From positions 1 through 21,805 of the forward strand of contig JAWBON010000017.1 in assembly GCA_038826135.1 (NCBI GenBank): a stretch of DNA of 21,805 bases, in the 5' to 3' direction. The notes beneath the pieces are model-generated. The model was given only the letters and a program-made list of their open reading frames with translations, was not told where the DNA came from and did not search any database. The first letter of the stretch is position 1, and every line of letters begins with the position of its first letter. Shown piece after piece: positions 1,912 to 14,563 of the stretch. The stretch comes from Candidatus Odinarchaeota archaeon (GTDB lineage Archaea; Asgardarchaeota; Odinarchaeia; Odinarchaeales; Odinarchaeaceae). A program made the translations under genes and the position numbers.

Positions 1912-3222
1912 ATGACGCGAATCTGCCTGATAACAGAAGGCACTTACCCCTTGACTATAGGCGGGGTTAGCAAATGGACCCACACACTAGTATCTCACAT
2001 GCCGGATCTTGAATTTGAGATTATCTCGCTTGTACCAGATACTAAAACAAGATTCAATTACACCCCTCCTAAAAATGTTAAAGAAATTCATCTGTGGCCT
2101 ATCTGGGAGGATCTTAATCCAGACGGGTGCGAGCGTGGTATTCAGCCAAATAACAATTATTCTGCTAGGAAAGTTAGGCGAATTTTTCAAGCTGAAGCGG
2201 CTAAGTTTCAATCCTCCCAATACTTAAATGAGGGTTTTCTAAAACCTTTAGAACGGGTTTTCAACATACCTTTACCCGAAGCTGATGTATATCATGCTCT
2301 TAATTCAGGTTATGCTGGTCTAATAGCTGGTTTAGCTAAAAGAATTTATAACAAGCCGGTAATAGTCACAGAGCACGGCTCATATTATAAGGAATGGTTT
2401 CTGAGATTAAGTCGGGTTGACTTTCCAGATGAGCTTCGCCACCCTAAGATATTGAAGCCTGAAGATCACACTCAGATTAAACTGCTTAAATTCATAGGTA
2501 AACTGGTGGATTTCTCATTTAAATCAGCTGATGTGATCGCGCCTGTGACAGGTGCGCATATACCTCTTGAACTGAAGCTTGGAGCCGATCCTAGAAAGAT
2601 AAAACCTATACCTAACGGTGTTAACTGTAGTCTTTTTAACAATTCGGGTAACGGTGAACACTGCGAGGAGTTAATCGTTGGAACTGTTGCTAGATTAAAC
2701 CCTATAAAAGATGTTAAAACCTTGATAAGAGCAGCCCGTCTAGTTTTAGATAAACAGCCTAACATTAAATTCGAGTTTATAGGTCCTAAAGAGGACTTAG
2801 ACTACTATAACGAGAGTTTAGCTTTAGTTGAAGAACTTGGTTTGGAGGAAAGCTTCAAATTTCTACCCGAGACATTTTCACCTGAGAAACTTTACTCTAG
2901 ATTCCAGGTTTTCGTTCTTTCCAGTATATCCGAAGCTCAGCCTTTAGCGTTACTGGAGGCGATGAGTTCAGGGATTCCTGTTGTAGCTACGAGAGTTGGT
3001 GGTGTTCCTGAGCCTGTGTACGGTAGCGGTTTACTGGTTAATCCCGGCGAGTATGAGAATATGGCTAAATCCATATTATTCTATTTAAGGAACCCTGAAG
3101 CTAAAAATGAGGCTGGTCTGAGGGGTAGGACTAAAGTTTTGAACCGTTACTCCGAGGAGTTGTTTATACGTAATTACAGGGAGACTTACTCTAATCTTTT
3201 AGGGAAACCTAAAATTTATTAA
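1912..3222 (+). CDS. pelF: GT4 glycosyltransferase, PelF-like (DUF3492 N-domain + Glycos_transf_1)
   Basis: PelF-type signatures LITEGTYPLTIGGVSKW, DVYHALNSGYAG and PVIVTEHGSY. GT4 C-domain motifs VARLNPIKDVKTLIRA and LSSISEAQPLALLEAMSSGIPVVATRVGG (ExxxxxxxE). Confidence 0.85.
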   Translation: MTRICLITEGTYPLTIGGVSKWTHTLVSHMPDLEFEIISLVPDTKTRFNYTPPKNVKEIHLWPIWEDLNPDGCERGIQPNNNYSARKVRRIFQAEAAKFQSSQYLNEGFLKPLERVFNIPLPEADVYHALNSGYAGLIAGLAKRIYNKPVIVTEHGSYYKEWFLRLSRVDFPDELRHPKILKPEDHTQIKLLKFIGKLVDFSFKSADVIAPVTGAHIPLELKLGADPRKIKPIPNGVNCSLFNNSGNGEHCEELIVGTVARLNPIKDVKTLIRAARLVLDKQPNIKFEFIGPKEDLDYYNESLALVEELGLEESFKFLPETFSPEKLYSRFQVFVLSSISEAQPLALLEAMSSGIPVVATRVGGVPEPVYGSGLLVNPGEYENMAKSILFYLRNPEAKNEAGLRGRTKVLNRYSEELFIRNYRETYSNLLGKPKIY

Positions 3223-3246
3223 AGTTTTCTGTATATTCTTATTCTC

Positions 3247-4254
3247 ATGCCTATGTTTGAAAACCATTATATTGAAAAATACGTTGCCATGTTGAAAACT
3301 CAAGGTAAGTCTGAGAGCACTATTGAAGGTGAGCTTAAAATTATAAAACTGTTTTTAAATAATGCGGCTGGTAAAGATCCTACCTTGATCGGGGACTTTG
3401 ACATTCAAGAATGGCAGATAAATCTTTTAAACCGGGGTAAAAAGCCTTCAACCGTTACACGTTACACTCGTGTTATATACAGGTTTCTAAAAACCCTCGG
3501 TGTCACTGTTAAAGTAGCGTATCCTAGATCTTACGGTGACGGTGGGGTACGCTTTCTAAACTTGGAGCAGCTGAAAGCACTGTACGAATGCCTTGACGAC
3601 CCGAGGGATAAGGCTATTATCTCCTTATTTGCCGAGACGGGTATTAAAACATCCGAGCTTATTAATCTGCGTAGGAGAAATGTGTTTGAGCAATCTCTGA
3701 TCATTTCTCCGTTTCAACCATACAGGGTTTTAAACCTGACTGATACGGCTCAACTATATCTTGTGGAATACCTTAATTCTAAAACTTATTTAAACGAGGA
3801 GGATCTTATATTTTCTACTGGTGTTAATAATCCTCACGGTAAATTAAGTTACGCTTCTCTGAATTTTATTTTCAAGAATATTACGCGCAGACTTTCGAAA
3901 ACTTTTAGATTATCTTACAAGATTACTCCTCAAATTCTCAGGAATACATTCATATACTTGCAGCTTGTCAGAGGCGTGCCTTTAGAGCTTATTAGGAAAC
4001 AACTAGGTTTGAAAAAATCTTATTCTATTCAAAAAATTAAAGCGCTGGTTAAAGACCAGGATGATACGGGTATGAGAATGCTTGTTGAATGCTTTAAATG
4101 TAAGTCAATGATACAGCCTCATATGAAGATATGCCCTTACTGTTTCAACGATCTACCTAACCTTGTATGTGATAAATGTGGTAGATTAGTGAAAAGAGAT
4201 TTTAAATTCTGTCCTTACTGTGGCGGTCTTCTAAAAACGGCGAGCCTGTTTTAA
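3247..4254 (+). CDS. Tyrosine recombinase (XerA/XerD-fold) protein with a degenerate active site and a C-terminal double zinc ribbon
   Basis: SAM-like N-domain (GKSESTI..., KPSTVTRY), then RDKAIISLFAETGIKTSELINL, ITPQILRNTF and IRKQLGL boxes. The C-terminus has four CxxC pairs (CFKC, CPYC, CDKC, CPYC). Confidence 0.8.
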   Translation: MPMFENHYIEKYVAMLKTQGKSESTIEGELKIIKLFLNNAAGKDPTLIGDFDIQEWQINLLNRGKKPSTVTRYTRVIYRFLKTLGVTVKVAYPRSYGDGGVRFLNLEQLKALYECLDDPRDKAIISLFAETGIKTSELINLRRRNVFEQSLIISPFQPYRVLNLTDTAQLYLVEYLNSKTYLNEEDLIFSTGVNNPHGKLSYASLNFIFKNITRRLSKTFRLSYKITPQILRNTFIYLQLVRGVPLELIRKQLGLKKSYSIQKIKALVKDQDDTGMRMLVECFKCKSMIQPHMKICPYCFNDLPNLVCDKCGRLVKRDFKFCPYCGGLLKTASLF

Positions 4255-7200
4255 TTTTTTCAAAACCTTTGTAATCGAGTAGGCTGAAGCCAAGCTTAAA
4301 CCGCATATGAATCCTGTTACTATACTTGTAAACGGGTTTAAGAAGCCTGTGAACGTGACTGTTAAAGATACTATAATAGTGATAATTACAGCGACGCTTA
4401 GACTGATGCAGCTAGATTTCAGTTCAATCATCGAATTAAATAAGATTTGAACTAACAATATAGAAAATAAGATGTAGCCGGCTCCGAGAAGTATTATTTC
4501 AAGTGTTGAAACAGTTAATGTGAGATTAAAGAGCAAGCATATGTCTTTTAAAAAGTATGTTACCGGTGACACTATTATAATAGATGTGAGGGCTGTTACA
4601 GTTAACAATCTTTTATAGGTTTTTAACAGGTCACTGTATTCGTCTACAGCTCCTTTTCGTTTAGCTAGGATTTGACGGCTGAACTCGTTAAGTTTAGCTT
4701 CAACCCTGCTTATTAAAAGCCCGCCTACCCCTATTACCGGGAACACTGTTAACTGGTAGACTAATATAGGTGTCTGAAGCTGTGGGTTTAAAAGTATCGT
4801 GTACCCTGCGGTACTCCAACCTTGGAGGAGCCAAACCAGGTAGTTTGTTAACAGGAGAAGATTTATTATTAAAGCCCCCAGTAGTATGGATTTCAAGTTG
4901 AATCTTGTTTCTTTGAATAAACGTGTGCGGAAGGATGGTTCAATCATCGGTAGGCTTCCTATTCTTAAAATATGTTTCAGTAAGTAGCCGCCTAAGAAAA
5001 CGCAGGCTATTGTTAAACTTATACTGTATGGTAAAATGACTCCTAAAACACCTAAATAATATGTAATATACAGTGAAGTAACCACTCCAGCCATCATAGC
5101 TGTAAGATAGGTAACTCCGAGGGTTGGCAGCCTACCTAACGCTTTATACGCTCCTATAAGAGATAAGAGGAATATGTTTGGGATGATGCAGGTTAAAGCC
5201 TGTAAAGCTGAATCCAACGGTATTATTCCAGTGAACGCGGCGAATGCGGTGAGCGCTCCTGTAACTGCTAGTGAAATATATAGGCTTGTTAGAAGTGTTT
5301 GCTTCACGTAGGTTTTTGTAAGCGTCGTATCTTCTGACAGAGCCGCCTCCTCTGTGTAGCGTCTAGTAATATAATCTAAACCATAGAATGTGAATGCAAG
5401 GGGAATGGTTACTGTGAAAATTAAGGTGAGCGTGTTAACGTCAACAGGGTTTAATATTCTACTGTAATGGTAGCCTAATACTAGGATGAATCCTAGGTTA
5501 AATATTATAGGCGAAGCTGTGAATAACCCGTTTGAGAAGAAGCTGCCGACCGCTTTAATTTTCTCCGATTCAATGAACTTGTTTGTTAAAGCTATTATAG
5601 CCGCGAAAACCGCGATAACGCTGATTGAAGCTATGATCAGTTCACCGTTAAACCAGTAAACGTATACGCTGTTGCTTGAAACCGTATAAGTTAAGACAGC
5701 GTAACCTGAAATAACCTGTAATTGAATTGTTAGATTACCTGCAGGCCAGGCTGTTGAAGGGTTAACTGTAAGCTTCCCACTATATGTTTGACCGCTTCCT
5801 ATTGTAACAGGGAGTTCGCTTTCACCCAGCTGCAGATCTCCTATTGAAACAATGGCTTTGATTTTAAGGTTTAAAGTGAACGGGTAATTGTTAGTTAATG
5901 TATAGTCTACGATTACGGGATCAGTTGGGAAATATACGTGTTTATCAACGCCCAGTATATTCGAGCTGAACTTTAATGAGTAATAGACTTCTATAAGCGT
6001 GTTACCTGAAGCGTTTAAAGATAATATCATTTTTTTACCGTCATAATACCATTTATCTGTAAGTGTTCTGTTAACGAAAACAGTTACAGGCGTGTTCGCT
6101 GGCTCCAAGGTTACTCTACCGTTCTTCTGATGCGGGCTTGTGAAGTTGAACGTGAACAATTCTGTTGCGGATGAGGCTGAGATTGGTCCTCCGAAGGTGC
6201 ATCCTGTTATATGTGGCTGCGTGGAAGGCTGACTGTCTAAGCTGACGGTGATCGTGTGTACTCCTTTTGTAAGCTGTGGTAGTATTATCGTAGTATTAGA
6301 GTAGAATAAGTAATCGTTAGAGTCTATTTTAACGCTTTGCACGTATAAGCTTGTATTATCAATTCTTACAGTCTGACCTGTAATATATTCAAGATACTCG
6401 TCGCCGATGCTTCCCGTATCTAAGGTTATTGTGATCGTGTTATTTGAGTAATATGTGACATTATATTTTACACTGTCACGGGCTTGGATTCTATGATAAT
6501 ACTCGTATGGTGTACACGTGTAAACGTCTGTTTTCTGCCATACCTCGTAGTCTAACATCCTGTACAGTAACGGTAGACGGCTTGAATTATCTAGGGAGTA
6601 GTCATGCCATAGTATAGTGTAGGGCATACCGTTACCTATACGGTAAGCTGTATCAAAAATTTCTTTTTCTATTTGCCAGGCATCTGACCAGTTAAGATTC
6701 ATCTGCGTTGGACTGAAAAAGTTATGATCGGAGTAGGATTGTCTGAAGAGGACGAAAACAGTGTTATTGAAATCTATGTTGCCGTCGCCGGTGTAATAGA
6801 ATTCTCTTCCAATAAGATAGGGGAAGTTTTTAATGCTGAGTTCTGTAATATACTGGTAGCCTACTTGAGGTAAATATATTGAAGCGTTATAACGGCTGAA
6901 CCATATTCCTTGACCCCACACCTGTAAACCTGTTACAGGTATGCTGAGGTTGCCTTCAATCTGGTGTCTGCTCAGATTAAGCTCGTTTAAAACACGTGTA
7001 TCGTTTACAGGTGTGAGATCCCAGTATACGTGTGTGACGGAGTGGGAGGTTAAATCATGTCCTTTACTGTAGGCTTCTAGGAATAATGGTTTGCAAGCCG
7101 TCCAGTTAATAAAACCGTAGTATTCACCTGACTGTTTAACAGGGCCTTCGCTTATAATCGCCCAGCCGAATGTGAAATAATATGTGTCAGCTAAGTTTAA

Positions 7201-8127
7201 CAGTCTTCGTAAAGCTGTGGTTGTGTTAACTGTGGCGAAACACCAGTCTTGGTCTACTGTGAATATCCATGTTAACCTGCCGGGTGTCGGCTGTAAGCCG
7301 ACAGCGGGGTAATCTCTGAAAATACACCATTGTAACGCTCTTAATAGGAGGGTGGTTTGATCAAACCACGGGTTAACTGCTAGATCATATACGTTTATAA
7401 ACACGCTTCTGCCGTCCCCTATCTGTGAGGTGAAGCCGCAGTATGTTAGCAGCGTGCCTGTTTCATTATCCACAGCTTTAAGAAATGTCTGTGTGCTTAT
7501 TGAAGTTGAGTTTACTGTCATATTATCTATGCCGAATACTGTGCTGTGAAGGGTTGTATTCTCAGGGTAGTCTACTGTAACAGGATGGTTTAGGGTTATT
7601 ATGGAGTGAGATTCGTTTAGGAAATAATTCATTTTAATATTAAACAGTGTTTTCAAGAATACGTCTTTATCCGTGTACAGGGTGTTGTTTTCATCTCTTA
7701 AACCTACATATCCGAAAGCTATTATGCTTCCACCGTTTTCAAGATATTCTTTATAATAATTTAATAATTCTAGTCTGGTCGAGTTAGAGATATATGTGTT
7801 GTCGGGAAGTATTATGCAGGAATATTTTTGCAGGGTTTCACTGCTTGTTATATTTTCTTCAGGGATTACTTCAAATCTTAAACCAGCCATGTATATACTG
7901 CTTTCAACAACATAGAATGACATTATAACAGGGGTTGTGATATTAGAGTTATTATAGCTGATTTGCTTCCATGTTAAGCTTAAATTGCTGAATACGATTC
8001 CAACCGGTTTAACCTCGAACGGAGTCCCCTCCACAGGCTGGCTTAAAGTGCTGCTGGGTAGAAATAGGAGGGGGATTATTAATACTGCAAGGATTACTAT
8101 CGCCGCTCTCCCTTTTTTAGACAACAC
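4231..8127 (-). CDS. Membrane-anchored polysaccharide deacetylase (CE4/NodB-like, PelA-like) fused to a multi-TM PelG-like polysaccharide exporter
   Basis: N-terminal signal/anchor (KKGR then a hydrophobic run) and a class I GATase-like segment (CIILPD...YLENGGSIIAFG). Deacetylase motifs FTVDQD (7243-7260), GHDLTSHSVTH (7030-7047 for SHSVTH) and ILWHD. Beta-rich Ig-like region, then about 460 aa with roughly 12 hydrophobic segments, the size and pattern of PelG/MOP-type exporters. The PelG assignment rests on size, topology, weak N-terminal similarity (YGLDYITRRYTEE) and gene context. Confidence 0.65.
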   Translation of the reverse strand: MLSKKGRAAIVILAVLIIPLLFLPSSTLSQPVEGTPFEVKPVGIVFSNLSLTWKQISYNNSNITTPVIMSFYVVESSIYMAGLRFEVIPEENITSSETLQKYSCIILPDNTYISNSTRLELLNYYKEYLENGGSIIAFGYVGLRDENNTLYTDKDVFLKTLFNIKMNYFLNESHSIITLNHPVTVDYPENTTLHSTVFGIDNMTVNSTSISTQTFLKAVDNETGTLLTYCGFTSQIGDGRSVFINVYDLAVNPWFDQTTLLLRALQWCIFRDYPAVGLQPTPGRLTWIFTVDQDWCFATVNTTTALRRLLNLADTYYFTFGWAIISEGPVKQSGEYYGFINWTACKPLFLEAYSKGHDLTSHSVTHVYWDLTPVNDTRVLNELNLSRHQIEGNLSIPVTGLQVWGQGIWFSRYNASIYLPQVGYQYITELSIKNFPYLIGREFYYTGDGNIDFNNTVFVLFRQSYSDHNFFSPTQMNLNWSDAWQIEKEIFDTAYRIGNGMPYTILWHDYSLDNSSRLPLLYRMLDYEVWQKTDVYTCTPYEYYHRIQARDSVKYNVTYYSNNTITITLDTGSIGDEYLEYITGQTVRIDNTSLYVQSVKIDSNDYLFYSNTTIILPQLTKGVHTITVSLDSQPSTQPHITGCTFGGPISASSATELFTFNFTSPHQKNGRVTLEPANTPVTVFVNRTLTDKWYYDGKKMILSLNASGNTLIEVYYSLKFSSNILGVDKHVYFPTDPVIVDYTLTNNYPFTLNLKIKAIVSIGDLQLGESELPVTIGSGQTYSGKLTVNPSTAWPAGNLTIQLQVISGYAVLTYTVSSNSVYVYWFNGELIIASISVIAVFAAIIALTNKFIESEKIKAVGSFFSNGLFTASPIIFNLGFILVLGYHYSRILNPVDVNTLTLIFTVTIPLAFTFYGLDYITRRYTEEAALSEDTTLTKTYVKQTLLTSLYISLAVTGALTAFAAFTGIIPLDSALQALTCIIPNIFLLSLIGAYKALGRLPTLGVTYLTAMMAGVVTSLYITYYLGVLGVILPYSISLTIACVFLGGYLLKHILRIGSLPMIEPSFRTRLFKETRFNLKSILLGALIINLLLLTNYLVWLLQGWSTAGYTILLNPQLQTPILVYQLTVFPVIGVGGLLISRVEAKLNEFSRQILAKRKGAVDEYSDLLKTYKRLLTVTALTSIIIVSPVTYFLKDICLLFNLTLTVSTLEIILLGAGYILFSILLVQILFNSMIELKSSCISLSVAVIITIIVSLTVTFTGFLNPFTSIVTGFICGLSLASAYSITKVLKKLKQARRF

Positions 8128-8156
8128 TTATCCCCATGTAATAGTTTACCTGTTTA

Positions 8157-8885
8157 TCAATCCACTACTAACCCCTCTCTGGTGATATTGAATGTATGCT
8201 CTTTCATATCGTGGTCGGTTCCCCTCATTTTCACTATCATAAGCCTTCGCAGGTTAACATCACTTTCTTTTTCAAGTTTTAATAGTATTATGCCGTCGAC
8301 TACGAACTCTTCTATGTCGAAACGGCTTAGCCTGTCTGACCCGCTTGGAACCTCGGTTGTGATCAAAAATGTGCAGTTAAGCTGGCTTATACCGTAGCAT
8401 AATCTCTGGATGTCTCTTCTTAAATCGAATATGCTATCATACTGGTATGCTAATGAAACTATTGAGTCTAAGACAACTCTTTTAGCCCCAATCTCCCCTA
8501 TTATATTAGCTGTTTTATATAGTAAGCTGTCTATTTCCCCTCTTCTCAAAATATATTTTTCATTTGAAGGGGCTGAGACTCTCGAGCTTATAGCATCAAC
8601 TATCGCTAGTTTTCCCTCGTTTTCAAGTTTTTCAAGATCCCAGCCGAAAGACATTTTAACATGAGCTCTAAGCTTGTCGGGGGGTTCATCCATGGTGATA
8701 AACACACCGGGTTCATCGAACATTGTTATTCCTTTATACACGAACTCTATTCCGAAAAGTGTTTTCCCTGTTCCCGAGGTGCCGGTGACCAGGTATGTTC
8801 CAGTGTTTGGAAAACCGCCTTTAATAAGCTCGTCAAAACCTTTTATCCCGGTTTTCACTCTGCCGCCATTATTCTTTAAACTCAT
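8157..8885 (-). CDS. Single-domain KaiC/RAD55-like ATPase
   Basis: RVKTGIKGFDELIKGG, Walker A GTSGTGKT, GVFITMDEPP, Walker B RVVLDS, EEFVVDGIILL and IVKMRGTDHD. RBS GAGGT lies directly after the upstream stop codon. Confidence 0.9.
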   Translation of the reverse strand: MSLKNNGGRVKTGIKGFDELIKGGFPNTGTYLVTGTSGTGKTLFGIEFVYKGITMFDEPGVFITMDEPPDKLRAHVKMSFGWDLEKLENEGKLAIVDAISSRVSAPSNEKYILRRGEIDSLLYKTANIIGEIGAKRVVLDSIVSLAYQYDSIFDLRRDIQRLCYGISQLNCTFLITTEVPSGSDRLSRFDIEEFVVDGIILLKLEKESDVNLRRLMIVKMRGTDHDMKEHTFNITREGLVVD

Positions 8886-8896
8886 ATAAAAACCTC

Positions 8897-9313
8897 TTAG
8901 AATAATTTAATAATCTTATCAAGAGTGGACTGAGCTTTACCTATTTTTTCAAGCTTTTTATATATTTTAGTGAGTAATTCATATTTAAAATCTACTCCGT
9001 TTTGTAAATTTTCGCTTATTAAACCTTCCAGCGCCTCCATATAGGGGTCGGGCCTCTCACCTCTGTCTAATATTACTGTAACCGTCTTATTTATCTGGGC
9101 TCCTGCATAATAACTTACGATTTTTATCTTTGGGAGACTAAGATATATTGTTCCGCATCTTCTAAATCCTATGCTGTGAGCGTTATATATGGCGACCGCC
9201 TCTTTACTGAAGTCTGGAAGCCAGTCAGGGTACTTTGCTTCTATAACCGGGCCGTCATCTAATTTCCACCCTATTAGTAGGAGTCCTTGGGGCATTTCAC
9301 GCACCGCTACCAT
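8897..9313 (-). CDS. Small longin/uDENN-like protein of a type common in Asgard archaea
   Basis: Pattern MPQGLLLIGW..GPVIEAKYP...IVSYYAG...VILDRGERPDPY resembles Asgard N-terminal longin-like modules as I recall them (not searched). The ATG overlaps the upstream stop (ATGGTAG). Confidence 0.55.
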   Translation of the reverse strand: MVAVREMPQGLLLIGWKLDDGPVIEAKYPDWLPDFSKEAVAIYNAHSIGFRRCGTIYLSLPKIKIVSYYAGAQINKTVTVILDRGERPDPYMEALEGLISENLQNGVDFKYELLTKIYKKLEKIGKAQSTLDKIIKLF

Positions 9314-10392
9314 AGTGAATCCATTTTCTTTATTGTTTTTAATAATGCTATCTCTCGGTTGTCAGGGTTGCTCATAACCTCTTTTAAAACGTCTTTTCCA
9401 ATTATCTCCCTTAACTTCTCTATGTTTCTCATGAAATACGGTATGATGATCTCTCCGCTTTTAACCATGGCTAAAACAACCGGGACTATTACCGCGCTTC
9501 CACTTTTTATGTTGTCTGCTAATACAAGCTTGAAGTCTACTTCCGTCCTCTTTTCATCTTTTTCTATTCTAGATATGTTTAAAGCATAGTCTGAGGCTGA
9601 GGCTATTTTTATATTGGTTTTAGGTGTTATTAGCTTGCCTAAACTTGTTTTATTGAAGACTCTTAACACGCCTAGTTTAGCTATGCTTGTTAACAGCTTT
9701 TTTAAAACATCTTTTTCAATGTTAAGTAAACTCTCCATTTCAGTGAAGCTGAGAGCGTCATTGCTCAGAAGTCTGCAGAGTGACAGGATTTTACCCTCAT
9801 CTAATCTAGTGTTTACGCTAGTGGCTGCTATCTCTATTATATTTTTAATAGTTATTCTATCCAGGTTGTGAATATTGAATAACATGTTTTCGCTTATATT
9901 ATTAGGTTTAAATCCTTCTCCAATTTTGATCTCGCTTATTATATATGGTGTTAACGCTTTTGAAACAAGTTCTGTAATATGTTTAATCTCCTCTAGGTTA
10001 CCCGACCATTTTGATAGTGTGTCCGCGTGTTTCTCTTCTATGTAATCTAATACGTCTTTCAGGTATTTTTTAAGATCGCTTGTTATAAACTCTGTGAAAA
10101 CCCCTAAAATAAGATATTCGCCTGAACTTAATATTATGCTATTATTCCCGAAATCAAGAATTTTTAAACCTTTTCCTGTGTTGAAAAGCTCTTTTGAAGC
10201 TAGAACTATCGCTGAGATTAAACCCGAGGTTAAATCACGGTCTATTTTAGTTGAACTAAAGTTACCGTTGACTATCGAGTACCCGTAGCGGTGAATTACC
10301 ATGTAATCGTAGATTTTTATGTCAAGGCTTGTGTTCAAAACATCTTCTAACTCTACGCTTCCCCCTATTTGCAAGTCTTCAGGACTGTACAA
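9307..10392 (-). CDS. Longin-like N-terminal domain + winged-helix-like region + unknown C-domain
   Basis: VIHRYGYSIV...DLTSGLISAIVLASKELF...LDFGNNSII...IEEKHADTLSKWSGNL is an Asgard-type longin/roadblock-like pattern. LSFTEMESLLNIEKDVLKKLLTSIAKLGVL is wHTH-like. Strong RBS AAGGAGGGGG before the TTG start. Confidence 0.6.
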   Translation of the reverse strand: MYSPEDLQIGGSVELEDVLNTSLDIKIYDYMVIHRYGYSIVNGNFSSTKIDRDLTSGLISAIVLASKELFNTGKGLKILDFGNNSIILSSGEYLILGVFTEFITSDLKKYLKDVLDYIEEKHADTLSKWSGNLEEIKHITELVSKALTPYIISEIKIGEGFKPNNISENMLFNIHNLDRITIKNIIEIAATSVNTRLDEGKILSLCRLLSNDALSFTEMESLLNIEKDVLKKLLTSIAKLGVLRVFNKTSLGKLITPKTNIKIASASDYALNISRIEKDEKRTEVDFKLVLADNIKSGSAVIVPVVLAMVKSGEIIIPYFMRNIEKLREIIGKDVLKEVMSNPDNREIALLKTIKKMDSLW

Positions 10393-10438
10393 ATCTCCCC
10401 CTCCTTACTAATTATATTAGCCTCTTACCTAATAAAAT

Positions 10439-11368
10439 TTACTTGGATTGAAAAAATTCTATGAGCCTTTTTAAACCATCCTCTAATCTGTAACATGGTT
10501 TAAAATCTAAAACTCTTTCAGCCTCGGATATGTCCGCGTAGCTTTCGTATATTTCCCCTTCTCTTCTCGGTAGAAATCTTATCTGCGAATTAGAAGCTGT
10601 TAATTTTTTTATTTCCGCAGCCAAGTTTCTTATCGTCGTTTTCTCACCTGTCCCGCCGTTTAAAACAATAAAACCAGGTGTTTCTTTTCGAAGAGCTGTG
10701 AGTGATAAGTTTACAAGGTCCTCTACATATATGAAGTCTCTCGACTGGTTTCCGTCACCGTATATTTGGATTTCCTTTCCAAGGATTGCGAGGTCGAGAA
10801 ATTTTGAGATAACACCTGAATAAGCGTTTTTCGGGTCCTGTTTAGGCCCGTAAACGTTGAACGGTCTAATAACTATTATATTTAACCCATAGAATTTACT
10901 GTAGAACTCGGCGTATTTTTCCGCTGTAAGCTTACTTAAACCATAAGGGCTTGACGGCTTCAACGGATGTTTTTCATCGATTGGCAGGTACTCTGGTTCC
11001 CCGTAAACTGCTGCCGATGAATAGTAAACTATTTTTTTCACTCCGTAAGCTGCAGCAGCTTGAAGAATATTTAATGTTCCTCCGATGTTTACCGTCGCGT
11101 CTTTTGCCGGATCCTTTATAGACTCTGAGACGCTTATTTGGGCTGCTAGGTGATATATTATGTCAACCTTTGAGACTACTTTATCCACTTGGCCTCTATC
11201 AGTTATATCCCCCTTCCAGAAAACTATTTTATCAATGAATTCTTGTATATTCTCAAGTTTACCGTTTGATAAATTATCTATAATGTGAACTGTATGGCCT
11301 TCCTTAACAAGAGCGCTAGCTAGATTTGACCCTATGAAACCGCACCCTCCAGTGACTAGTATATTCAA
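10439..11368 (-). CDS. galE: NAD-dependent epimerase/dehydratase, UDP-glucose/UDP-GlcNAc 4-epimerase type
   Basis: Extended SDR motifs TGGCGFIG, HLAAQ, SSAAVYG, YGLSK (YxxxK) and PFNVYGP. GGAGG RBS before TTG 11368. Confidence 0.85.
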   Translation of the reverse strand: MNILVTGGCGFIGSNLASALVKEGHTVHIIDNLSNGKLENIQEFIDKIVFWKGDITDRGQVDKVVSKVDIIYHLAAQISVSESIKDPAKDATVNIGGTLNILQAAAAYGVKKIVYYSSAAVYGEPEYLPIDEKHPLKPSSPYGLSKLTAEKYAEFYSKFYGLNIIVIRPFNVYGPKQDPKNAYSGVISKFLDLAILGKEIQIYGDGNQSRDFIYVEDLVNLSLTALRKETPGFIVLNGGTGEKTTIRNLAAEIKKLTASNSQIRFLPRREGEIYESYADISEAERVLDFKPCYRLEDGLKRLIEFFQSK

Positions 11369-11410
11369 CGTGATAGCCTCCGTTAGTGATAAAATTAAAT
11401 ATTAATCTCG

Positions 11411-11426
11411 TATATATAAAATTGTT
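11411..11426 (-). promoter_or_regulatory. BRE/TATA promoter of the minus-strand epimerase-to-deacetylase operon (TATA may be bidirectional)
   Basis: The minus strand reads AACAAT-TTTATATATA, predicting a start near 11388 and a short leader that contains the GGAGG RBS. Confidence 0.5.
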
Positions 11427-11447
11427 ATATCTTTTGGAGGTTAGTGT

Positions 11448-11552
11448 ATGGCTGTTTTCGTTTGTGATAAATGTGGTGCTCTTTTCGAAGCTCGTTGTAA
11501 GCCTAAGAAATGTGAGAACTGTGGTTCAACGCAGATCTCTAGGAAGACTTAA
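11448..11552 (+). CDS. RCKP-type rubredoxin-like / zinc-ribbon microprotein (34 aa), absent from the ORF track
   Basis: My translation is MAVFVCDKCGALFEARCKPKKCENCGSTQISRKT*, with two CxxCG knuckles and the RCKP motif. GGAGG RBS at 11436-11440. Confidence 0.85.
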   Translation: MAVFVCDKCGALFEARCKPKKCENCGSTQISRKT

Positions 11553-11630: not shown

Positions 11631-12335
11631 ATGACCATTATAGAAAAATTTAAAGCCCTTTCATGTGAAGCCCGCTACAATATTTATAACCTGCTTAGAC
11701 GTAGACAAATGTCAATCGACGAGATCTCTAATTTAATAAATTTGAAACCTATAACTGTAAGACACCATATAAGTGAGCTGGAGCGTTCAGGCTTGATCTG
11801 TAAGAAGCTTAACAGGGTTAGCTTGGTCGGGAGACCTAGCACAGTTTACGGTGTAAACTCTGATCTTTTAGAAACATCGTTAATAACGAGAAACTACCCT
11901 GCTTTGCAAGAAATCTTATTCGTATCTATTCAAAATTATTTTAAGAATGAAGATCAACTTTCAGAATTCTATAATTTTCTGGGTAGACAACTAGCCCGTA
12001 TGATTTTAGCTGGGTTAAACTATAAAGACTTTAACGGCTGGAGTTTAAAGGATGTGAAAGAGAAAATTTTCTTTGAAAGAATGCAAAATTACGCTCCCAT
12101 GCCTGAGATAGTTGAGGATGAGGAAAAATTCTTTATTTTCAGATTGTACACGTGTCCTTTTCTAGAGCATACTTTACCGTTTTTTGAATCTCTTTGTAGA
12201 ATATTATCAGAATCCTATATCCCTGAACTGGCAAGTATAGTCGGAATAGTGGATATTTCAATCATGCATAGGAGGACTCTTGATAAACCCTTCTGTGAGT
12301 TTAAAGTTTCTTTGAAAGATTCTAAGAAACTCTAA
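11631..12335 (+). CDS. ArsR-type HTH transcriptional regulator with a SufR/V4R-like Cys-containing C-domain
   Basis: KALSCEARYNIYNLLRRRQMSIDEI...TVRHHISELERSGLI...GRPSTVY is an ArsR wHTH. The C-domain has YTCPF...SLC...PFCEF. Confidence 0.8.
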   Translation: MTIIEKFKALSCEARYNIYNLLRRRQMSIDEISNLINLKPITVRHHISELERSGLICKKLNRVSLVGRPSTVYGVNSDLLETSLITRNYPALQEILFVSIQNYFKNEDQLSEFYNFLGRQLARMILAGLNYKDFNGWSLKDVKEKIFFERMQNYAPMPEIVEDEEKFFIFRLYTCPFLEHTLPFFESLCRILSESYIPELASIVGIVDISIMHRRTLDKPFCEFKVSLKDSKKL

Positions 12336-12418: not shown

Positions 12419-14563
12419 ATGCCTATAAGTAAAATAATAAAGCGTGATGGTAGAGAGGTCCCCTTCGACCAGTCTAAGATCACTAATGCTATCTTCAAAG
12501 CCTTACAGGCTGTTGGAGAGGGGGATTATTCACTAGCCCAGAAACTCTCTGATAAAGTTGTTGAAATCCTTGAGAAATCGTTTAAAACCAGAACACCTCA
12601 CGTTGAAGATGTTCAAGATATTGTAGAGCTGGTTCTCATAGAGGAGGGCCAGGCTAAGACAGCTAAAGCCTATATTTTATACCGGCAGAAGCGTAAAGAA
12701 CTCCGCGAAGCTAAAATGCTTCTAGGGGTTACAGATGAGCTTAAACTACCTTTAAACGCTGTGAAAGTTTTAGCTAACAGATATCTGCGTAAAGATGAGA
12801 ACGGCCGGGTTGTTGAAACCACAGCTCAACTGTTTAGGCGTGTAGCTAGAGCAATAGCTGAAGCTGATAAAATATATGATAAACATGCGGATGTAGCTGC
12901 TGTTGAAGAGAAATTTTATAATTTAATGACTAGCTTCAAATTCCTCCCCAACTCCCCAACCCTTATGAACGCCGGCCTAGACCTTGGTCAACTCTCCGCC
13001 TGCTTCGTCATTCCTGTAGAAGACTCTATGGAGAGTATTTTCGACGCTGTCAAATACACTGCGTTAATCCACCGCTCAGGCGGCGGCACCGGATTCTCTT
13101 TTTCGAAGCTAAGACCGAAAGGTGACGTTGTGAAATCAACCGGCGGAATCGCTTCAGGGCCTCTCTCGTTTATGAAAGTCTTCGACGCCACTACGGATGT
13201 TGTCAAACAGGGTGGAAAACGCAGAGGAGCGAATATGGGTATTCTACGAGTAGATCACCCTGACATACTCGAATTTATAACAGCTAAAGAACGCAACGAT
13301 GTTCTTAACAACTTTAACATCTCGGTAGCTATCACAGATGAATTCATGGAAGCAGTTAAAGCTAATAAAGAATATCCTCTAATAAACCCTAGAACTGGAA
13401 AAGTTGTTAAAACCCTCCCGGCTAGAAAAGTATTCGACCTTATTATAACTATGGCTTGGAAAAACGGTGAACCTGGTGTAATATTCATAGACCGCATAAA
13501 CCAGTATAACCCTACTCCTCATCTAGGTAAAATAGAAAGCACAAATCCCTGCGGTGAGCAGCCTCTCTTACCTTTTGAAAGCTGTAATCTGGGGAGTATA
13601 AACTTATCTAAATTTGTTAAGGACGGTAAGATTGACTTTGAATCTTTAAGGGAGACTGTTTGGGATGCTGTTCATTTTCTAGATAATGTGATTGACGTTA
13701 ATAAGTATCCGCTTCCTGAAATTGAGAAGAGAACAAGAGCCACTCGGAAGATCGGGTTAGGTGTGATGGGTTTCGCGGACATGTTAATTGAGCTTGGTGT
13801 TCCTTATAATAGTGAGGAGGCGTTGCAGATCGCTGAACAGGTTATGAAGTTCATAAACGAAGAGGGTCATAAAGCGTCTAGAGCTTTAGCTGAGAAGCGT
13901 GGTCCATTTCCAGCTTTTAAAGGAAGCGTTTACGCTCAGCGGGGTGAACCACCTATTAGAAATTCAACTGTCACCACGATAGCTCCTACCGGTAGTATTA
14001 GCATTATTGCCGGTTGCAGCAGCGGCATTGAACCGATATTTGCAATCAGTTATATTCGCCGGGTTATGGAGGGAACCGAGCTTATTGAGATAAACCCTAT
14101 TTTTGAAAGAATTGCAAGGCAGAGGGGATTTTACTCTGATGAGCTTATGAAGGTGATTGCCAAACACGGTTCTATAAGCAGGTTTCAGAGCATTCCCGAG
14201 GATATTCGCCGTATATTTGTTACAGCTCATGATATAGAGCCTATATGGCATGTTCGATTGCAAGCTGCTTTTCAAAAATATACTGATAACGCTGTTTCGA
14301 AAACAGTTAATCTGCCTTTTCACGCCACCCCACATGATGTCGAACTAATATATTTCAAAGCTTACGAGCTTGGCTGTAAAGGTATAACAGTATACCGTGA
14401 TCGGAGTCGTGAAGCCCAGGTTCTTAACATCGAGCCTATAGTAGAGGAGCAGGAGGTTTCCCCGCCTGTGCGTGTGGAGCAATGCCCTACATGTGGGGTT
14501 GAACTGGTTAACCAGGAGGGCTGTATTATATGTCCAAGCTGCGGTTATGGAAGGTGCGGTTAG
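12419..14563 (+). CDS. nrdJ: Adenosylcobalamin-dependent (class II) ribonucleotide reductase with an N-terminal ATP cone and a C-terminal zinc ribbon
   Basis: ATP cone [16 protein letters not shown]. Catalytic motifs [36 protein letters not shown] and [10 protein letters not shown]-terminal [17 protein letters not shown]. No intein seen. Confidence 0.95.

Follow-up and report, generated by a model that had tools for sequence, protein, structure and literature searches.

A gene cluster at positions 1912-11368 of a 21.8-kb contig from a Candidatus Odinarchaeota archaeon probably encodes a compact Pel-type exopolysaccharide synthase for a single-membrane archaeal envelope, in which one polypeptide would carry out both export and de-N-acetylation. 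The contig (JAWBON010000017.1, here C17) was analyzed in its entirety and is referred to as the window; it belongs to a 1.26-Mb genome that is 93% complete. Pel is among the most widespread biofilm polysaccharides of bacteria. An earlier note, made from the DNA letters alone, had read the cluster as a Pel-like system, and this reading stands for the polymerase PelF, the exporter PelG, and the epimerase. For the deacetylase it stands in part, as this domain appears to belong to the CE4 superfamily and follows the domain order of PelA without being a member of the PelA family. Systematic surveys of Pel have been limited to bacteria, and archaea are unmentioned in PMC7112194. As far as the literature could be searched, we found neither an archaeal Pel system nor a fusion of a deacetylase with PelG described there, and a full-text search for Asgard and Pel together returned nothing. 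The protein at the center of our analysis, a fusion of 1298 residues hereafter called the giant protein, carries no name in public records beyond "hypothetical protein."

The first gene of the cluster encodes a glycosyltransferase of family 4 (GT4) that had been credited with a PelF signature and that is, on profile and tree evidence, a member of the PelF family. It matched the Pfam family DUF3492 (3.9e-42, in two stretches) together with Glycos_transf_1, and it scored 195.3 bits against the NCBIfam PelF equivalog NF038011, for which the cut-off is 100. The DUF3492 match is split because ~60 residues in the middle of that region are missing relative to the canonical PelF encoded on contig C4 of the same genome (31% identity), and we call the window's enzyme the short PelF. 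The gap is common to the short PelF orthologs of four other Odinarchaeial genomes, and the short PelF keeps the GT4 E-x7-E motif and the invariant R/K. In a tree of 90 PelFs and three neighboring GT4 enzymes, the sampling of which was biased by the DNA pattern used to collect PelFs, the PelFs were split from the three outgroup sequences with full support in the SH-like approximate likelihood ratio test (SH-aLRT 100). The short Odinarchaeial PelFs formed a clade of their own, also with support of 100, and the deep branching order of the tree was unresolved.

The C-terminal part of the giant protein is, by profile-profile comparison, a diverged PelG of 12 transmembrane (TM) helices. Standard family searches gave nothing for this region: residues 830-1298 had no match in Pfam or NCBIfam even at E 10, a genome scan with PF16933 found only a gene on contig C4, and phmmer against 1.8 billion representatives returned only four Odinarchaeial relatives. 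With hhalign, the domain aligned to the genome's own Pfam-validated PelG at 98% (E 3e-13, 431 columns), compared with 0.3-0.6% for reversed-sequence controls. When compared with 71 aligned bacterial PelGs from pelF loci, it reached 94.5% (E 8e-8, 383 columns), where the canonical Odinarchaeial PelG reached 97.3% and a reversed control 0.4%. An unrelated 13-TM protein from a Kryptoniota locus stayed at 0.1-0.6% in all PelG comparisons. A hidden Markov model (HMM) built from the domain recovered the Odinarchaeial PelGs (E 7e-18), the PelG of another Asgard genome (G004, 1e-13), and a fusion protein of a second Asgard lineage (G025, 1e-7). An unrelated flippase of the Wzx/MATE kind was considered and rejected, as the PelG-specific profile matches beat all controls, which remained below 1%; the PelG-sized multi-TM domain of the earlier note is therefore PelG-like in kind as well as in size. 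Foldseek searches with a low-confidence model of the domain retrieved MOP flippases at weak E values (1e-4) and TM-scores of 0.3-0.45, which is consistent with this assignment only.

The alignment to PelG starts only past an additional helix at residues 823-848, at about PelG residue 18-20. Such a helix would be required if a domain lying outside the cell were joined to the cytoplasmic N-terminus of PelG; it brings the chain from the outside back to the cytoplasm before the N-in PelG core. The PelG-like gene lies ~1 kb from the short pelF gene, with the recombinase gene alone between them, and the same holds in four further loci (L004, L020, L021, and L091).

The N-terminal half of the giant protein is, judging from its sequons, an extracellular, glycosylated domain. 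Its ~800 residues contain 28 N-x-S/T sequons, compared with 10.5 ± 2.9 in shuffled sequences, and none of 1000 shuffles reached 28. This corresponds to 35 sequons per 1000 residues vs. 4-17 in the cytoplasmic neighbors. The first folded part, residues ~40-275, gave a weak Pfam match to Glyco_hydro_42M and was modeled by AlphaFold2 (AF2) with moderate confidence (predicted local distance difference test, pLDDT, 70-90). Foldseek matched this model at E 1e-9, and VIA-align placed it at Z 15-17.7 to the GH42 middle domain, ThuA-like proteins, IFT52, and GATase1. In the next part, residues ~285-560, the CE4 motifs DxD (D292/D294), HxxxH (H362/H366), and WHD (W507-H508-D509) are invariant in 7-8 sequences, including a homolog from a Thiotrichaceae bacterium. 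When a profile of this region was compared with the Protein Data Bank (PDB), 10 of the 12 best matches were CE4/NodB enzymes (best E 4.4e-4), among them 7AX7, 2J13, and 2W3Z, and a profile of the whole ectodomain returned only a chance neuraminidase match (E 0.55).

The resulting order of an alpha/beta domain of ThuA/IFT52-like fold, a carbohydrate esterase, and a beta-rich region is also that of PelA, in which a ThuA/PhzE/IFT52-fold domain precedes the deacetylase domain and a beta-rich domain follows it (2025 structure paper, PMC12022489). The solved PtPelA (9CGY) was not among the matches listed by Foldseek or VIA-align for the ectodomain model. An Atlas feature search returned DUF2194 clusters at 0.93, which we treat as a lead only, and an iterated HMM of the ectodomain and its Thiotrichaceae homolog did not reach the DUF2194 proteins of the fetched pel loci. 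Taken together, these results back a Pel-like deacetylase only in part: the domain is of the CE4 superfamily and its architecture resembles that of PelA, yet it lies outside the PelA family. The earlier description of a CE4 deacetylase joined to a multi-TM domain was borne out in superfamily and in the fusion, and neither a DUF2194 nor a PelA/CE21 signature was present.

Homologs of the ectodomain place it in the same context. In a Thiotrichaceae metagenome-assembled genome (L022, JALWSU010000444), an 864-aa homolog (HMM E 3.7e-26; BLASTP 3e-12, 26% identity over 413 residues) sits in a cluster of the order OEP-[homolog]-epimerase-NTP transferase-epimerase-PelF-PelG-GH114-TPR. Because it lies within a pel-type cluster, the ectodomain family appears to fill the deacetylase slot there. 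No homolog turned up when the ectodomain alignment was used for a word-indexed search of proteins 297-1008 aa long. Unfused versions of the ectodomain (751-874 aa; L090:2901-5492, which is P0012, as well as P0011 and P0013) occur in other metagenomes, where they end in a single C-terminal TM anchor and a Lys-rich tail. Their contigs are short, with no Pel gene visible in 5.6 kb. In the second Asgard lineage (G025, L094:14464-18615), a 1383-aa fusion encoded next to pelF scores 28.7 bits for Polysacc_deac_1 and 56 bits for PelG, both above the Pfam cut-off.

The remaining activity of the cluster is a C4-epimerase, as had been noted before, and it is of the GalE/PelX type by its matches (Pfam Epimerase, 7e-67). 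Its best solved match was the GalE of Thermotoga maritima (4ZRM, 235 bits), and the second best was 6WJB (215 bits, E 1.3e-62, residues 2-303), with the YGLSK motif aligned. We confirmed that 6WJB is PelX, the UDP-GlcNAc C4-epimerase of Pel synthesis (bioRxiv 10.1101/2020.05.26.111013). The GalE equivalog TIGR01179 matched at 212.6 bits, below its cut-off of 262.

Beyond the family relationships, domain order, topology, conserved catalytic motifs, and cross-lineage gene linkage observed here, we infer a substrate, a polymer, and a coupling of steps as follows. The epimerase would supply a UDP-hexosamine, most plausibly UDP-GalNAc made from UDP-GlcNAc, which the cytoplasmic short PelF would polymerize at the membrane. 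The PelG-like 12-TM domain of the giant protein would move the chain across the membrane, and the attached N-glycosylated ectodomain, with its GATase1-like domain, CE4 domain, and beta-rich stalk, would partly de-N-acetylate it at the exit site to give a cationic surface or matrix polymer. The window set might act alone or with the canonical pelF-pelG pair on contig C4. A GalNAc-rich cationic product would be expected from family membership, and the same machinery might instead make a polymer based on GlcNAc or Glc, or a glycan associated with the cell envelope or S-layer rather than a GalNAc-rich biofilm matrix. We consider this alternative rather unlikely, even though the T. maritima GalE came ahead of PelX while the GalE equivalog score fell below its cut-off, the deacetylase is generic for the CE4 superfamily rather than CE21, and the short PelF is structurally altered. 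Still, Pel biogenesis is defined by four activities, namely PelF, PelG, a PelX-like epimerase, and a de-N-acetylase (PMC12022489), and the Thiotrichaceae cluster has this combination again, with a GH114-type hydrolase in addition.

Several observations weigh against a Pel-type synthase. The ~60 residues of DUF3492 are missing from the short PelF. Polysacc_deac_1 matched residues ~285-560 at 16.5-19.3 bits, below the gathering score of 23.1, and DUF2194 (PF09960) had no match in the giant protein at E 10 and none in the genome. The MT1 motif reads T-V-D-Q-D, with Thr290 where PelA/CE21 has His; in that family the motif is H-x-D-x-D, the CE4 Arg being replaced by His (PMC12022489). Membership of the deacetylase in PelA/CE21 or DUF2194 is excluded by these last two results. 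The AF2 models offer little help, with a mean pLDDT of 53 for the TM domain and 50 for the ectodomain, the CE4 part of which lies at 20-30 and is unusable. The ectodomain also has no detectable homology to that of the G025 fusion (hhalign, 2%). The entire region, including the genes for ribonucleotide reductase (RNR) and CobA, is syntenic among Odinarchaeia, and a shared neighborhood among members of the class therefore supports a functional link only moderately. Among sequencing runs, DNA of the window was found in hot-spring metagenomes, and two libraries labeled metatranscriptomic, which are probably DNA, gave scattered low-depth contigs over all window genes, with no RNA run listed. A scan for sigma-70 promoters and terminators was discounted, as it does not apply to archaea.

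A last point of this kind concerns regulation. PelD and PelE are needed in the characterized bacteria, and the lack of PelD noted earlier for the window extends to the whole genome, at its 93% completeness. We found no match there to PelD_GGDEF (PF16963), GGDEF (PF00990), DUF2194, or GH114, and no separate search for PelE was made.

All open reading frames (ORFs) listed in the earlier note were recovered and are intact across the cluster, and they form the two convergent gene sets that it described, with a 24-nt overlap of their 3′ ends (4231-4254; Table 1). On the plus strand, the short pelF gene is followed by a recombinase-like gene with zinc ribbons. The minus-strand set runs, from 5′ to 3′, from the epimerase gene through those for a 361-aa protein, a 138-aa protein, and a KaiC-like ATPase to the giant gene. 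Its spacing is operon-like: the genes for the 361-aa and 138-aa proteins overlap by 7 nt, an 11-nt gap leads to kaiC, and 29 nt separate kaiC from the giant gene.

Table 1. Features of the Pel-type cluster and of the giant protein, with positions in the window.
Feature	Coordinates	Strand	Basis
Short PelF-family GT4 glycosyltransferase, 436 aa	1912..3222	+	Pfam, NCBIfam, tree
Inactive tyrosine-recombinase homolog with double zinc ribbon	3247..4254	+	Pfam Phage_integrase, DZR
Giant protein, 1298 aa, CE4 ectodomain and PelG-like domain	4231..8127	-	Parts listed below
N-terminal signal or anchor segment, residues 1-25	8053..8127	-	KKGR stretch, then hydrophobic run
GATase1/ThuA/GH42-middle/IFT52-like alpha/beta domain, residues ~40-275	7303..8010	-	AF2, Foldseek, VIA-align
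CE4-superfamily (NodB-like) putative polysaccharide de-N-acetylase domain, residues ~285-560	6448..7275	-	Motifs, profile
Beta-rich, sequon-rich stalk, residues ~560-820	5668..6447	-	Weak Big_3_5 match
Extra linker TM helix, residues ~823-848	5584..5661	-	Hydropathy scan
Diverged PelG-like 12-TM domain, residues ~855-1298	4234..5565	-	Profile-profile comparison
Single-domain KaiC-like (RecA-superfamily) ATPase	8157..8885	-	Pfam KaiC 1.2e-72
Asgard-restricted protein, 138 aa, possibly longin/roadblock-like	8897..9313	-	No Pfam family
Protein of 361 aa, longin-like N-terminal lead and central helix-turn-helix-like segment	9307..10392	-	No Pfam family
GalE/PelX-type short-chain UDP-hexose C4-epimerase, 309 aa	10439..11368	-	Pfam, PDB matches

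The convergent layout is common to the closest named relative of the window proteins, Candidatus Odinarchaeum yellowstonii LCB_4 (giant protein 69% identical), and to two or three further Odinarchaeial genomes. In a distant Odinarchaeon (L005, giant protein 32% identical), the genes for PelF, the epimerase, a 336-aa protein, a 132-aa protein, KaiC, the giant protein, and RNR are all co-directional, and there is no recombinase. Compared with L005, the window has the five genes from epimerase to giant protein in inverted orientation, with the recombinase-like gene at one breakpoint and an ArsR-type helix-turn-helix (HTH) gene (11631-12335) at the other, both of which are absent from L005. The operons that had been called rewired are thus convergent as described, but the rewiring amounts to a block inversion within Odinarchaeia. 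The linkage of the genes in relatives holds as well: in five Odinarchaeial genomes the set of six is kept, even where identity of the giant protein falls to 32%.

The recombinase at the breakpoint had been described as dead, and its residues agree. In comparison with XerA (5HXY/4A8E), the catalytic positions have changed from R to K134, from H to Q229, and from H to L255; R232 is kept, and there is no conserved nucleophile Tyr. The LCB_4 ortholog (69% identity) keeps these substitutions and is likewise without the Tyr. An active integrase or mobile element was rejected, as the catalytic residues are lost. A dead recombinase inside the cluster could suggest that the whole is a decaying, non-functional relic of a horizontally acquired bacterial pel locus, and so could the rarity of PelF in Asgard archaea (DUF3492/PelF in 6 of 301 genomes, two of them outside Odinarchaeum) and the origin of the nearest bacterial PelFs in the hot-spring Kryptoniota, whose long PelF was the nearest bacterial relative of the Odinarchaeial PelFs in our scan (34% identity). 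Yet the ORFs are intact and the catalytic motifs invariant at 32% to 70% identity in at least five genomes, and the fusion has kept a length of 1297-1303 aa in all Odinarchaeial relatives. We therefore regard a relic as highly implausible.

Three further genes of the window lie outside the cluster. A NUDIX hydrolase gene (1042-1530) is a conserved upstream neighbor of short pelF in all Odinarchaeial genomes, and a 5′-open ORF at 2-1012 is, by synteny, the C-terminal part of a zinc-ribbon radical-SAM protein. The gene at 12419-14563 encodes a class II-like RNR of 714 aa that is free of inteins; the RNR of the distant Odinarchaeon (L005:13997-17173) has 1058 aa and contains an intein with a LAGLIDADG endonuclease.

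The same genome carries a second, canonical pel locus on contig C4, which the earlier note did not include. There, a PelG gene (Pfam 90 bits; L003:10183-11790, minus strand), already named by the NCBI pipeline, is divergent to the gene for a full-length PelF (DUF3492 213 bits; L003:11904-13313, plus strand), and downstream of pelG lie genes for two proteins, one of 161 aa that matches no family and one of 432 aa with coiled coils. In view of this second pair, the two loci may be paralogous systems, the window set having diverged, or the two halves of one system.

If they were one system, the short PelF and the fused PelG-deacetylase would act with the long PelF and PelG of contig C4, either as partners in a hetero-oligomeric synthase or by providing its sole module for modification and export. 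We think this possible but not likely. All four of the Odinarchaeum genomes searched carry both the long and the short PelF. In Kryptoniota, a short PelF (~400 aa, with the same DUF3492 gap) and a long one (~512 aa) are encoded in tandem in one operon, and two PelFs are also paired in one cluster in the Thiotrichaceae genome and in the Asgard genome G004. In addition, the C4 pair has no deacetylase of its own, because no CE4-like match other than the giant protein occurs in the genome. However, the loci lie on separate contigs in this genome, in LCB_4 a distance of ~1.2 Mb on the 1.42-Mb chromosome separates them, the tree does not join the short PelFs of Odinarchaeia and Kryptoniota, and each locus has its own PelF and PelG-type domain, which is enough in principle for a separate machine.

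The KaiC ATPase already reported in the window was confirmed, and its position is kept in L004, L005, L020, L021, and L091. The two small proteins encoded upstream of it are harder to place. Atlas clusters nearest to the 138-aa protein contain Asgard sequences only, and in one of them 19% of the members carry NPR2-longin; orthologs occur in all Odinarchaeial clusters. For the 361-aa protein, Atlas gave leads only, namely a structure row "Fuz/Mon1/HPS1 first longin" (Fuz_longin_1, TM-score 0.72 by hit) and HTH_47 and TrmB clusters. Its L005 ortholog is 27% identical, a comparison with TackOD1 gave 0.1%, and a complex prediction for the two proteins returned a score of 0.01 and no verdict. Paralogs of the 138-aa protein (121 aa, E ~1e-8) are encoded ~5-6 kb from the canonical pelF in other Odinarchaeial genomes (L010:8481-8846 and L011:17065-17430).

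Since no c-di-GMP system is detectable in the genome, the leading candidates for a substitute regulator or scaffold are KaiC and the two small proteins; this is the weakest step of our model. A more specific version, in which the Odinarchaeial synthase is gated by a KaiC-like autokinase/ATPase and a longin/roadblock-like pair instead of c-di-GMP, acting on a single-chain exporter-deacetylase, seems doubtful to us. Longin/roadblock-like proteins are of the kind that regulates eukaryotic membrane traffic, and if this version were true, "eukaryote-like" regulatory parts of Asgard archaea would have a direct part in secreting an extracellular matrix. KaiC accompanies Pel genes in Odinarchaeia alone, and a functional connection is conjectural.

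It is a serious possibility that the three proteins are passengers instead, forming a separate Asgard signaling or trafficking-like module that merely happens to be housed in the same operon and syntenic block as the polysaccharide genes. They accompany Pel genes in Odinarchaeia only, and bacterial pel loci have PelD/E or GAF/SpoIIE/HD-GYP genes and no such set. The synteny of the entire region across the class weakens their functional link, and the paralogs of the 138-aa protein elsewhere in Odinarchaeial genomes also fit a passenger role. Against it stand the tight spacing in lineages that are 25-32% identical (1 nt, 50 nt, and an 11-nt overlap in L005) and the movement of the five-gene block as a single unit in the inversion. 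At the Pel loci of two other Asgard lineages, proteins with TackOD1 (Thaumarchaeal output domain 1) adjoin PelG or the CE4-PelG fusion (L094:13152-14237 and L093:5443-6543) and may be lineage-specific regulators of Pel-type synthases. Their corresponding place, which also favors the passenger view of KaiC, suggests that such regulators are plugged into a common PelF/PelG core.

Should the cluster be a Pel-type synthase, it would be a concrete, testable candidate for matrix building or partner attachment in uncultured relatives of eukaryotes, and one able to run without c-di-GMP, PelD, or PelE. A natural exporter-deacetylase fusion would fix the geometry between translocation and modification and could be useful for structural work on the hand-over of the chain from PelG to the deacetylase. 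It would also document likely gene flow between hot-spring Kryptoniota and Odinarchaeia.

Among known systems, the characterized pelABCDEFG and pelX genes of Pseudomonas (P. aeruginosa and P. protegens; PMC12022489, bioRxiv 10.1101/2020.05.26.111013) share with the window a PelF GT4, a PelG, a metal-dependent de-N-acetylase between ThuA/IFT52-like and beta-rich domains, and a PelX-like epimerase. Unlike Pseudomonas, the Odinarchaeon has no GH166 domain, no PelB, PelC, PelD, or PelE in the window, and a Thr in place of the CE21 MT1 His. Its PelG is too diverged for Pfam to recognize and has the deacetylase attached N-terminally via the extra TM helix. The Gram-positive pelDEA(DA)FG operon of the Bacillus cereus type, with a PelA-type deacetylase that lacks a glycoside-hydrolase domain (PMC7112194 and its companion paper), also has PelF and PelG in a single-membrane envelope, and the absence of PelB and PelC from both sets would follow from that envelope. 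There, however, the deacetylase is a separate DUF2194 gene, and PelD (the c-di-GMP receptor) and PelE are needed. At the level of fold only, a GATase1-like domain next to a CE4-superfamily de-N-acetylase that acts on hexosamine polymers is also found in Aspergillus Agd3 (CE18; 6NWZ, VIA-align Z 13.7) and in the human N-deacetylase NDST1 (9F6Z, among the Foldseek matches), although these enzymes are eukaryotic, secreted or located in the Golgi, and are not fused to an exporter.

The loci of Kryptoniota come from the same kind of habitat. In 5 of 5 of them (L012-L016; e.g., L015:8778-9986 and 9983-11515), after the tandem short and long PelFs come a 547-aa protein with weak likeness to PelG and a 13-TM protein of 579 aa that is unrelated. 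The locus L015 resembles the window in its short PelF, which has the same gap beside a long PelF, but differs in having a true DUF2194 deacetylase, GH114, SpoIIE/GAF and HD-GYP/GAF/STAS regulators, and a PelG that is weakly recognizable and unfused. The Thiotrichaceae cluster provides the only bacterial ectodomain homolog found, with the same GATase-like and CE4 layout and DxD/HxxxH/WHD motifs, beside epimerases, PelF, and PelG. By contrast with the Odinarchaeon, its deacetylase is a separate secreted protein, and the cluster adds GH114, TPR, outer-membrane components, and a second PelF.

PelG is joined to other domains in bacteria as well (L045:4389-7121; L027:5933-8581; L019:6482-8845): a Coriobacteriales PelG of 910 aa has a C-terminal GT4 domain, and Leptotrichiaceae PelGs have C-terminal extensions of 300-400 residues that belong to no Pfam family. 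The architecture of the giant protein is matched by the fusion of the second Asgard lineage. That protein has an ectodomain of ~820 aa containing the CE4 motif HSxTH, then a similarly placed TM helix and PelG, with PelF adjoining. Its neighbors differ, consisting of a 606-aa protein and a TackOD1 protein with no KaiC or longin-like genes, and its PelF is of the long type. Judged from these two proteins, the fusion of a deacetylase to PelG would be either very old or a design that arose twice.

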